Source: Chloroflexota bacterium (GTDB taxonomy: Bacteria > Chloroflexota > UBA6077 > FW602-bin22 > CADDYW01). Taken from it: DNA of 64,000 nt. The stretch covers positions 381 to 64,380 of the forward strand of contig JAJPKB010000642.1 in NCBI GenBank assembly GCA_021323915.1, written 5' to 3'. Each line of letters begins with the position of its first letter. Positions within the stretch are counted from its first letter, which is position 1. Under the pieces are notes generated by a model that worked only from the letters and a program-made list of their open reading frames with translations, was not told the origin of the DNA and did not search any database. Of this stretch, positions 51,752-53,433 are shown one piece after another. The translations under genes were made by a program, and so were the position numbers.

Positions 51752-52273
51752 TCATGGACATGTAGCCCGACATCTGAAATTGCCTCGGCCCTTGCCACAA
51801 TCGGTACACCCGAAGCCCGGACAACAGGGAGGAGCGTCTGGGGCATCTAGACCGCACGGCTGGTCCTGTGGGGTACAGGGGACTGATTGCGCGAAAGCTG
51901 GTATCGGCGCAACGATGGAGGTGACGAGCGGGACAAGGAGCGCGCTCCCCGCTGCCACTCCCACCTCCTGAATGATCTGACGACGCGACCGTCGCGTCCG
52001 ATCCAGCGAGTCGTCGATCGGTTTGTCTAGCAAGTGTGACTTCTCGAGATGATCCAGACCGAGCCAAATGACGTCCTCGGTAGCTCCAGGATCCACCTCG
52101 CGACGCACGATCTCGAGCAATTGGGTGCTAGAGGTTTGTCCATTGCAGTGGCGCCAGACCGCCGCGGCAATCGGATTCAAGCAGTGAATTTCCTCTCGGT
52201 CGAGGTCATAGACAATCAGCTCGCTCTGGAACTCCTCGATGACCAGGCCTGCCTGACGTGCTCGGGGTATCAT
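51752..52273 (-). CDS. PqqD/RRE-like domain fused to an internal twin-arginine signal-like segment and an 8-Cys C-terminal peptide
   Basis: GAGGAG RBS 5 nt before the ATG. Residues 8-85 are PqqD-like (LVIEEFQSELIVYDLDREEIHCLNPIAAAVWRHCNGQTSSTQLLEIV). Residues 92-128 are TRRSRRQIIQEVGVAAGSALLVPLVTSIVAPIPAFA. Residues 129-173 are QSVPCTPQDQPCGLDAPDAPPCCPGFGCTDCGKGRGNFRCRATCP. Confidence 0.7.
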   Translation of the reverse strand: MIPRARQAGLVIEEFQSELIVYDLDREEIHCLNPIAAAVWRHCNGQTSSTQLLEIVRREVDPGATEDVIWLGLDHLEKSHLLDKPIDDSLDRTRRSRRQIIQEVGVAAGSALLVPLVTSIVAPIPAFAQSVPCTPQDQPCGLDAPDAPPCCPGFGCTDCGKGRGNFRCRATCP

Positions 52274-52306
52274 TCTGTCTCCTCATCTCGGGCTGCCCAG
52301 CGACGA

Positions 52307-53215
52307 TCAGGACGCTGGCTGCCCCGGTGAGCCGCATGTCGACTGTAGGTGCCACTGATCAGGATCAGCCGGCAGCGGTAACGCTTCGACATATCGCAGG
52401 AGTGCATCAGCTGTATAGGCAGCCTCCCCGCGTTGACTTTTGAGAGCGAAGGCCCCGGCCAACGCTTTACGCAAGATGGAGAGAGCGAGCTGCGGCCGAC
52501 TGCGCACGACGACCGTGTTATCCAACAAAGCGAGCGCAGCGTGCCCGGGCGAAAGCAACTCGGGACGCCATACTGTATCGGTTTGGTATTCGGTCGCCAC
52601 GACCAGCCCCACTCGCAATGGCTCCGTGCCAATCCGCTCGCCAAGCTCCCCGGCTGGCACGTGCTGCCCAGGAGTGGAATCCGTACCACGGAGATTGAGA
52701 CGCTTGGGATAGGGGTGAACCCACCCCTCGGTGTCGAAGACGGCGTATTCGTCCGAATAGTATGTCGCCCCGGCTCGGACCAAGGCAGCCACGAGGGTTG
52801 ACTTCCCGGTCATCATCCGCCCTGGAATCACGATGGCATGCCCCTGCCAGCCGACGACCCCGGCGTGTACAAACAGGTCAGACCGAGATCGGTAAGCCAC
52901 ACTGACGTGCAGGGACGACTCTAGCGCGGCCAGGACCGCAGCGAGCTCCAGCTCACGCGCGACTCGTCCGCTCGCCTGATAAAGGAGGTGGTAATGGCGG
53001 AAATGCCCATGCGGGTCTGGCCGACCGACAACGAGCGAGTACAAGTCGTCGACGATGGGAGCCTCGGTTGACGACACGATGGGAATCCAGTCGGGCGGGA
53101 GATGGGGAGGAAAACGATCGAGAATCGCCGAATCGGTGACCCGGATTCCAATGCGTGCTCCGTGGCTTTCGAAGGAGAATCCTGCCACCCACCCGAGGCG
53201 GTCAAGCTGCTCCAT
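52307..53215 (-). CDS. HPr-kinase-related P-loop kinase (HprK C-terminal-domain-like)
   Basis: FVHAGVVGWQGHAIVIPGRMMTGKSTLVAALVRAGATYYSDEYAVFD resembles the HprK/P nucleotide-binding core (G.sG.GKS...L...G..lv.DD). It ends 33 nt upstream of the PqqD-like gene. Confidence 0.7.
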   Translation of the reverse strand: MEQLDRLGWVAGFSFESHGARIGIRVTDSAILDRFPPHLPPDWIPIVSSTEAPIVDDLYSLVVGRPDPHGHFRHYHLLYQASGRVARELELAAVLAALESSLHVSVAYRSRSDLFVHAGVVGWQGHAIVIPGRMMTGKSTLVAALVRAGATYYSDEYAVFDTEGWVHPYPKRLNLRGTDSTPGQHVPAGELGERIGTEPLRVGLVVATEYQTDTVWRPELLSPGHAALALLDNTVVVRSRPQLALSILRKALAGAFALKSQRGEAAYTADALLRYVEALPLPADPDQWHLQSTCGSPGQPAS

Positions 53216-53253
53216 TCAGGGCGAATTCGTGGAAAGTCGGGGAAGGAGGGTTT

Positions 53254-53433
53254 CTAGCATGTCCGCCTCCGTTCAAGGCGCAGAGCCACGAAACTACCGA
53301 CAGCGACCGACAAGACACCAAGCCCTATGGCAATTATAGTCACGTAGGCAAAGCCATGGTTGAAATCCCAATATGGAGATGGTTGAGGTTTAGTAGAGCA
53401 GTTCTCCCAACGCCCCCATTTTCCCATTGACAT
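53254..53433 (-). CDS. Candidate 59-aa tail-anchored small protein upstream of the kinase
   Basis: MSMGKWGRWENCSTKPQPSPYWDFNHGFAYVTIIAIGLGVLSVAVGSFVALRLERRRTC. GAGGAGCGGAGAGC precedes the ATG at 53433, and the stop is 38 nt before the kinase start. The 5' end overlaps a divergent promoter. Confidence 0.3.
   Translation of the reverse strand: MSMGKWGRWENCSTKPQPSPYWDFNHGFAYVTIIAIGLGVLSVAVGSFVALRLERRRTC

Follow-up and report, generated by a model that had tools for sequence, protein, structure and literature searches.

The kinase-like gene and the fusion gene

Our analysis concerns two adjacent minus-strand genes in a 64,000-nucleotide stretch of contig JAJPKB010000642.1 from a Chloroflexota bacterium (this whole stretch is called the window below). 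The upstream gene, K (52307–53215), encodes a 302-amino-acid (aa) kinase-like protein with a predicted HprK/PEPCK-type P-loop fold. The downstream gene, P (51752–52273), encodes a 173-aa fusion of a PqqD-type recognition element (RRE) of peptides that are synthesized ribosomally and modified post-translationally (RiPPs) with an internal twin-arginine-type signal and a Cys-rich tail, and may thus be a self-guiding precursor, that is, a substrate carrying its own recognition domain. Comparison across genomes indicates that the pair belongs to a large cassette which, in most relatives, also includes a gene for an NTP_transf_5 protein. Both genes had been placed on this strand by a first-pass annotation made from the sequence of the window, and the open reading frames (ORFs) at these coordinates confirm them.

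The TGA stop codon of K is separated from the ATG of P by 33 nt, and a GAGGAG Shine-Dalgarno sequence lies 5 nt ahead of the P start. Directly 3′ of the P stop codon we found a hairpin (51653–51723, minus strand) with a 33-bp perfect stem and a 5-nt loop (dG −83.9 kcal/mol, z −10.7), which occurs as a single copy in the window and is the probable terminator and operon end. The next gene in this direction encodes the sugar-binding protein of an importer-type ATP-binding cassette (ABC) system and has its own perfect sigma-70 consensus promoter (51474→51447). The hairpin and this separate promoter together define K–P as a two-gene unit of its own. Regarding the hairpin itself, its stem is far stronger than that of a usual terminator and is not followed by a T-tract. 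The GC content at third codon positions (GC3) is 0.68 in K and 0.63 in P, compared with 0.77–0.86 (about 0.8) in the flanking genes. This lowers the coding signal of both genes and, as far as composition can tell, suggests a relatively recent horizontal acquisition.

The K protein contains the P-loop GRMMTGKST, whose Walker-A part GRMMTGKS (aa 132–139) is encoded at 52799–52822 on the minus strand, and the motif YYSDEY with its SDE residues. In an alignment of 32 homologues (alignment A2), the columns G132, R133, G137, K138, S154 and D155 are invariant and E156 is nearly so. A Foldseek search with the AlphaFold2 (AF2) model of K (predicted local distance difference test score, pLDDT, 88; predicted TM-score, pTM, 0.85) retrieved ATP-dependent PEP carboxykinase (E 2.5e-5) and the HprK/P structures 3tqf and 1kkl (E 1–2e-4). 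Among sequence profiles, NCBIfam TIGR04352 (HprK_rel_A) gave a partial match of 54.5 bits over aa 88–176 against a cutoff of 200, no Pfam family matched, including Hpr_kinase_C, and a sequence search of the PDB with the K profile returned no matches. The earlier assignment of K to the HprK-type kinases therefore stands with regard to the P-loop and SDE motifs and the modelled fold, but not with regard to the curated family profiles. In the model, K has the HprK/PEPCK P-loop fold, and from motifs and model combined we infer on good grounds that it is a kinase. More than 3217 homologues of K were found at 50–60% identity. Three of the homologues (P0119, P0120 and P0130) carry the precomputed Pfam accession PF27840.1, and a literature search on PF27840 returned nothing relevant.

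The N-terminal domain of P (aa 1–88; 52010–52273, minus strand) is a PqqD/RRE domain, both by hidden Markov model and by fold. Residues 18–68 score 28.1 bits against Pfam PqqD (PF05402), whose gathering cutoff is 23.4, and the AF2 model, built from 66 homologues, reaches a pLDDT of 92–96 over aa 1–80. The modelled strands (aa 10–15, 18–23 and 28–32) and helices (aa 34–41, 49–59 and 66–78) form a three-stranded sheet and a three-helix winged helix, and thus a fold like that of the solved RREs. Its best structural match is the lasso-peptide protein TbiB1 bound to its leader (5v1u/5v1v, TM-score 0.72–0.74, E 5e-4), and further matches are to other RRE-containing RiPP enzymes. The PqqD-like character that the first-pass annotation had proposed for the first 85 or so residues is thereby supported by profile and by modelled fold.

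P is a member of a very large family. A first word-indexed search returned 12 relatives, and a profile search at least 2847 clusters at 90% identity (E≤1e-5). An exhaustive HMMER scan of 1.84 billion representatives gave 1609 clusters at 50% identity with E≤1e-30, 5640 with E≤1e-10 and 9890 with E≤1e-3. The family thus comprises thousands of members from at least 8 phyla, which go by the NCBI name 'PqqD family peptide modification chaperone'. Throughout the family the layout is kept: the sequence is conserved up to an AxA site and hypervariable beyond it, with a fixed and even-numbered Cys framework, as would be expected of a precursor. The fusion of an RRE to a signal-like segment and a Cys-rich peptide, which had been read from this one sequence, is therefore an architecture shared by thousands of proteins. 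Tandem and orphan copies of P are common (for example at loci L002, L086, L101, L153 and L160). In one family member of 263 aa (P0010), a long collagen-like G-x-T repeat takes the place of the Cys-rich tail.

Between the RRE and the tail lies a hydrophobic segment (aa 94–128, RRSRRQIIQEVGVAAGSALLVPLVTSIVAPIPAFA; 51890–51994, minus strand) that looks like a twin-arginine-type signal. Column frequencies among 320 non-redundant members (in window numbering) give [STN]96 (0.96), R97 (0.99) and R98 (1.00), followed by hydrophobic residues at 100/101, R/K102 (0.88) and G105 (0.84). Further downstream are P115 (0.99), V/I117, S/T119 (0.97), I120 (0.82), A122 (0.86) and P123 (0.99), and the conserved stretch closes with A126 (0.76), A128 (0.93) and, just past the segment, S/T130 (0.93). 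The first of these groups, [STN]-RR-x-hydrophobic-hydrophobic-[RK], reproduces the consensus of twin-arginine translocation (Tat) signals, and an Ala/Gly/Pro-rich h-region and an AxA c-region come next. The segment also carries a conserved PLVTSIVAP motif, after which the AxA site falls at the boundary between conserved and variable sequence. When eight signal segments of the family were scanned in isolation, TIGR01409 (TAT_signal_seq) was the top match for six and reached its curated cutoff in three, the window's own segment scoring 16.8 bits against a cutoff of 16.7. The remaining matches were also Tat-related, and Pfam TAT_signal (PF10518) matched one of the eight segments, below its cutoff.

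We considered whether the signal might be brought to the N-terminus by an internal start just before the SRR, and rejected this candidate: of 108 genes, 33 have ATG at this position and 15 a Tyr codon, and in the window the residue is Arg. Leu codons preceding the SRR showed no enrichment of TTG either (6 of 27 versus a background of 0.19). Since an internal start is not conserved, the signal genuinely lies behind a folded domain of about 90 aa. In the AF2 model of P, the residues VTSIV (117–121) form a beta-strand and are not part of a transmembrane helix. Couplings from average-product-corrected mutual information (MI-APC) connect helix alpha3 of the RRE (residues 67, 75 and 79) with residues 101–117 at ranks 15–80, a signal that is confounded by phylogeny. 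Taken together, the predicted strand and the couplings hint that the signal segment might pack on the RRE in cis.

The tail of P (aa 129–173; 51755–51889, minus strand) contains 8 Cys and is the putative exported peptide. Family tails are hypervariable and 25–50 aa long; 89 of 122 members have 6 Cys and 30 of 122 have 8 Cys, commonly in the pattern C-x6-C-x6-CC-x3-C-x4-6-C. The family-conserved columns 133, 140, 150, 151, 156 and 172 (0.84–0.96) are all Cys in the window, which has an extra pair at C159 and C168. This C-C-CC-C-C framework is that of O-superfamily conotoxins and of spider toxins with an inhibitor cystine knot (ICK). The tail is modelled at a pLDDT of 82–90 with a beta-hairpin (155–158/166–169), and its structural match to agelenin has a TM-score of 0.72 at 30% identity (E 0.85). 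Matches to Pfam Toxin_29 and the conotoxin families were sub-threshold, and profile matches to spider toxins in the PDB had E-values of 0.1–0.4. These comparisons point consistently, if weakly, to a knottin-like tail. With knottins such as the O-superfamily conotoxins, agelenin and atracotoxin it shares the framework C-x6-C-x5/6-CC-x3-C-xn-C, but the host is bacterial, the matches are non-significant and the peptide forms the C-terminal part of an RRE fusion.

Armatimonadota loci encode a secreted protein of about 270 aa between K and P, with a C-terminus that by inspection resembles PEP-CTERM. In L079, the Cys-rich tail of the local P is also found at the end of a paralogue of this protein, which indicates that the tail module has been shuffled between carriers. 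The genes concerned lie at L079 8838–9602 and 7035–7877, L004 6963–7817 and L010 2705–3496.

A recurrent cassette and its relation to known systems

A scan of genome contigs with the single K sequence found no relatives, and the scan was repeated with the profile of alignment A2, using one genome per species, which yielded 80 loci. In the Acidobacteriota, these belong to Blastocatellia/Pyrinomonadaceae, Vicinamibacteria, Bryobacterales and Thermoanaerobaculaceae; the others are from Armatimonadota, Gemmatimonadota, Chloroflexota, Methylomirabilis, Nitrospinota, Gemmataceae and a deltaproteobacterial metagenome-assembled genome. Across 82 kinase-bearing sources, a full-length P homologue is present in 47, and a third gene, N, coding for an NTP_transf_5 protein of about 360 aa (PF14907, 96.6 bits), in 62. 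P and N occur together in the order K→P→N at 38 of the 82 kinase loci, covering at least 8 phyla, and K–N without P at 24. At a bit score of at least 100, P was detected in 46 kinase loci, in 37 of which it starts no more than 300 bp after K on the same strand. Adjacency of K and P at this frequency, and mostly in this tight downstream position, is far beyond chance. K, P and N are also the only conserved neighbours across the 82 loci, all others reflecting lineage-specific synteny.

In the window, no NTP_transf_5 gene was found, even at E≤10. The closest relatives of the window K include both arrangements, as L170 has K–P without an adjacent N and L173 has K–P–N; in L172, the contig ends soon after P, so that the presence of N cannot be judged there. 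The first-pass annotation had taken the locus for a self-standing minimal system. This view has to be replaced, since on the sequence comparisons the locus is a reduced (K–P) copy of the widespread three-gene cassette K→P→NTP_transf_5, with the third gene absent here.

We also looked at the linkage from the side of the fusion protein, in 80 soil-metagenome loci. Where the upstream flank was 1 kb or longer (44 loci), K is located upstream of P in 14; where the downstream flank was 1.2 kb or longer (33 loci), N is located downstream of P in 19. For the 28 loci with both flanks available, neither gene was found in 9, N only in 9, K and N in 6, and K only in 4. K is thus not obligatory for P, and the K–P linkage is strong but facultative, as in multi-precursor RiPP systems. 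The earlier proposal of an RRE fusion served by a kinase therefore holds only as a facultative pairing, seen from the fusion side at about one third of loci.

Two fusions of N were observed. At locus L003 (2238–5428), NTP_transf_5 is fused to signal peptidase I (TIGR02227, 106.7 bits versus a cutoff of 47), which fits signal-peptidase processing at the AxA site of P. At L142 (5440–7074), it is fused to the membrane domain DUF2127. The PqqD protein of L003 ends three residues after its ASA site (…ASAYSW) and has no Cys tail.

Full-text literature searches by component names, accessions and architecture found no description of the cassette and retrieved only work on lasso peptides, in keeping with the first-pass statement that the locus matches no characterised system. 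The lasso tailoring module is the only characterised context that combines an HprK-like kinase, an NTP_transf-type protein and an RRE. In this module, the linear lasso precursor receives a phosphate on its C-terminal Ser from the kinases PadeK, ThcoK and PsmK, and PsmN adds one or two hexoses onto that phosphate in pseudomycoidin (PMC8498205, PMC6993621). The metal-site residues D158/D159 of PsmK, which offer a functional precedent for the acidic pair in the SDE of K, as well as D134/D136 of PsmN are required for activity (PMC6993621, PMC8498205), and in lasso clusters N is sometimes fused to the leader peptidase (PMC8498205), to which the fusion of N with signal peptidase in L003 bears a likeness. 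The same three protein types as in the paeninodin and pseudomycoidin modules are co-located in the K–P–N cassettes, and the RRE of P is structurally closest to lasso B1 proteins. However, the cassette has no lasso cyclase, B2 protease or ABC exporter, the RRE of P is fused to the substrate instead of being a stand-alone protein, and N is absent from the window. In addition, P lacks the C-terminal Ser acceptor, its core being a Cys-rich mini-protein with predicted signal-peptide export. Lasso leaders carry the motif YxxPxLxxxG...Tx, with a spacing of 12 between P(−14) and T(−2). We do not claim this motif for P, in which the spacing from P115 to T130 is, by inspection, 15.

Two other systems resemble the cassette more remotely. 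The HPr-rel-A system (TIGR04352 and TIGR04353) likewise combines an HprK-related kinase, whose model is the best NCBIfam match of K, with a PqqD-family protein. Nevertheless, K remains far below the TIGR04352 cutoff, TIGR04353 gave no match for the window P, and the relative of P in L173 scored 20.2 against 35. As the TIGR04353 profile has only 74 positions, it models a stand-alone PqqD protein without signal or Cys tail. The SynChlorMet cassette, in which an HprK-like ScmC and a PqqD-like ScmD go together with radical-SAM partners, bears a weak likeness: K matches ScmC at E 0.011 and P matches ScmD at E 6.5e-5, all scores being far below cutoff, and there are no radical-SAM genes near K–P. 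By these profile comparisons, the cassette appears to be an RRE-associated peptide tailoring system that is distant from both the TIGR04352/TIGR04353 and the ScmC/ScmD pairs.

A further parallel is offered by Tat export. Tat signal peptides have binding chaperones, the redox enzyme maturation proteins (REMPs) of the TorD/DmsD type. The segment in P shares with Tat signals the [ST]RRxFLK-like motif, an h-region of moderate hydrophobicity and the AxA site. By analogy with these chaperones, a peptide-binding domain could retain the signal for as long as the cargo is unfinished. In contrast to canonical Tat substrates, however, the signal of P is internal, starting at about aa 94, and the putative chaperone would have an RRE fold and act in cis.

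A proposed route to secreted mini-proteins and its alternatives

From the domain identities, the conserved architecture, the gene linkage and the operon boundaries established above, we infer how the peptide might be phosphorylated, exported and cleaved, whether its signal is bound in cis, and what biological role the peptide may have. In the reading we prefer, and to which we give about an even chance of being correct, P would be a self-guiding precursor that is tailored by K, exported by a Tat-type route and cleaved at AxA to a knottin-like peptide of about 45 aa. The RRE domain would stay in the cytoplasm, where K, by analogy with the lasso-peptide kinases, would phosphorylate a Ser or Thr of P ahead of its export. 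Two residues are candidates for the acceptor, Ser119, which is near-invariant and part of VTSIVAP, and Ser/Thr130 (Ser130 in the window) just before the first Cys. In most relatives, N would then extend the phosphate, as PsmN adds hexose to phosphorylated pseudomycoidin; with N missing from the window, only phosphorylation would occur here. The RRE would probably serve as a docking handle for K and N, and may keep the signal segment bound in cis as long as tailoring is under way. Subsequently, the Tat-type signal would move the tail across the membrane, and a signal peptidase acting at AxA would free the disulfide-rich peptide.

Several of our own results weigh against this route. K scores under the curated cutoff of every kinase family model and finds no counterpart in the PDB sequence search. 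The C-terminal Ser that lasso kinases use as acceptor is absent, since the window P ends in …RATCP, and the last column of the P family has a combined Ser and Thr frequency of only 0.17. The Tat profile scores are marginal, with the window's segment barely above the TIGR01409 cutoff and the single match to Pfam TAT_signal sub-threshold, and it is atypical for a Tat signal to start only after some 94 residues of a protein. The similarity of the tail to knottins is statistically weak (the agelenin match has an E-value of 0.85, and the toxin families of Pfam remain below cutoff). Finally, only 14 of the 44 fusion-side loci have K near P, and both K and N are missing from 9 of 28.

A more elaborate version of the self-guiding precursor would have the substrate-borne RRE bind and mask its own Tat signal through PLVTSIVAP. 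Phosphorylation by K and, in most relatives, a subsequent phospho-glycosylation or nucleotidylation by N would then release or license export, before signal peptidase frees a bacterial knottin. This would amount to a kinase-gated Tat secretion of hypervariable, disulfide-knotted peptides that is widespread in soil Acidobacteriota, Armatimonadota, Gemmatimonadota and Chloroflexota. We consider this version on the unlikely side.

Alternatively, P might be a bitopic membrane protein with its N-terminus inside, in which the hydrophobic segment acts as a signal-anchor between a cytoplasmic RRE and a retained Cys-rich ectodomain that functions as a sensor, receptor or surface structure, with K and N as its cytoplasmic partners in signalling or regulation. 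We regard this as rather unlikely. The roughly 25 hydrophobic residues that follow positive charges would suit an anchor, the sequence-specific PLVTSIVAP within a hydrophobic region is unusual for a disposable signal peptide, and the NCBI name of the family likewise describes a chaperone. Yet a near-invariant AxA falls exactly at the boundary between conserved and variable sequence, and short, hypervariable, toxin-like tails of 25–50 aa in tandem-duplicated genes are typical of secreted effectors or precursors. The fusion of signal peptidase I to N in one cassette also argues against a retained ectodomain, as does the AF2 model, which gives a helix and a strand here and not one transmembrane helix.

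A second alternative, in our view likewise rather unlikely, separates the enzymes from P. K and N would act on another substrate, such as a small molecule, a glycopolymer of the envelope or some other, unrecognised small peptide, with the RRE of P serving only as their scaffold, or N alone would tailor P, with K as an accessory regulator. Such a division of labour would agree with the fusion-side loci, in which P–N without K is as common as K–P–N (9 versus 6 of 28), and with the 24 of 82 kinase loci that have K–N without P. The function of NTP_transf_5 is, moreover, poorly defined even in the lasso case (PMC6993621), and a 59-aa ORF lies upstream of K in this lineage. This ORF has no homologue in the related loci, however, and at least 8 phyla preserve the order K→P→N, tightly packed and with short spacers. 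Furthermore, where this pair of enzymes has been characterised, its substrate is a ribosomal peptide associated with an RRE.

The tail could also bind metal, as a metallophore or metallochaperone that is loaded or folded in the cytoplasm and for this reason uses Tat, an idea we find very doubtful. It would account for the 6–8 conserved Cys including a CC pair, and a Tat-type signal implies folded or cofactor-bound cargo. Bufferin enzymes are of the MNIO/DUF2063 type. Bufferins themselves offer a precedent as signal-peptide-bearing, Cys-containing ribosomal metallophores (PMC11626156), but differ from P in their enzymes, in their N-terminal signal and in having neither a kinase nor NTP_transf_5. 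Against metal binding, the Cys spacing of the tail fits an ICK, the AF2 model of the tail is a confidently predicted, compact hairpin that needs no metal, and no MNIO or other metallophore enzymes are encoded near K–P.

The notion that K and P are unrelated genes brought together by chance, or artefacts of annotation, for which only their low GC3 might speak, is practically eliminated by the co-occurrence data, given that each has thousands of homologues and a confidently predicted fold and that their linkage recurs in dozens of unrelated genomes.

The cassette is very large, associated with soil bacteria and apparently undescribed, and it probably makes tailored secreted mini-proteins. If the self-guiding precursor reading is correct, thousands of soil-bacterial genomes would encode secreted peptides of an unrecognised family that are small, hypervariable and rich in disulfides. 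Such peptides would correspond, in bacteria, to the knottins of animals and plants, and stable bioactive scaffolds could be drawn from them in large numbers. P would also provide the first RRE in the literature searched that resides on the substrate and not on an enzyme, as well as an export signal placed behind a folded cytoplasmic domain, both of which bear on how RiPP recognition can be combined with Tat/Sec targeting. In addition, the cassette would constitute a second and much larger context for the tailoring pair of HprK-like kinase and NTP_transf_5. The two-gene version in the window represents a compact construct for direct tests of phosphorylation and export.

Surroundings of the two genes

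The 59-aa ORF upstream of K (53254–53433, minus strand) had been put forward in the first-pass annotation as a possible third component. It lies inside a 95-aa ORF that runs to 53541, is preceded by a Shine-Dalgarno-like GGAG and is among the genes that gene finders predict in three metagenome assemblies from this lineage. It occupies the divergent region of about 250 nt, with promoter-like sites, between K and a gene for a LysM/Peptidase_C39_2 protein. We rejected it both as a precursor and as a third component: none of the related loci examined has a homologue and none was called in the closest relatives, and it is probably outside the system.

The divergent gene (53427–54416, plus strand) encodes a secreted protein with LysM and Peptidase_C39_2 domains. 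Its true start is probably further downstream, as the listed TTG start overlaps a promoter-like site. A role as leader peptidase was considered for this protein and rejected, because it is not among the conserved neighbours of the related loci. The other neighbours within about 8 kb encode importer permeases, the sugar-binding protein, a dehydrogenase, a TPP enzyme, URO-D and the like. Genes for a lasso cyclase, a B2 protease, a radical-SAM enzyme, a YcaO protein or an ABC exporter are absent within this distance, as had been noted in the first pass.

In the window as a whole, Rfam detected no RNA family, and no anti-phage defence model of PADLOC matched. A 525-aa protein (45545–47122, minus strand) has a C-terminal Mrr_cat restriction-endonuclease domain, which also matches the NACHT-associated inactive restriction endonucleases, and no domain was assigned to its N-terminal 400 aa. 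Lastly, the region 30000–41600 looks like a prophage or phage-derived island: it has a GC content of 0.66–0.68 compared with about 0.61 and a strong positive GC skew, and contains an 800-aa ORF with a Phage_capsid_4 domain (34040–36442) as well as an SLT transglycosylase ORF (40956–41555).

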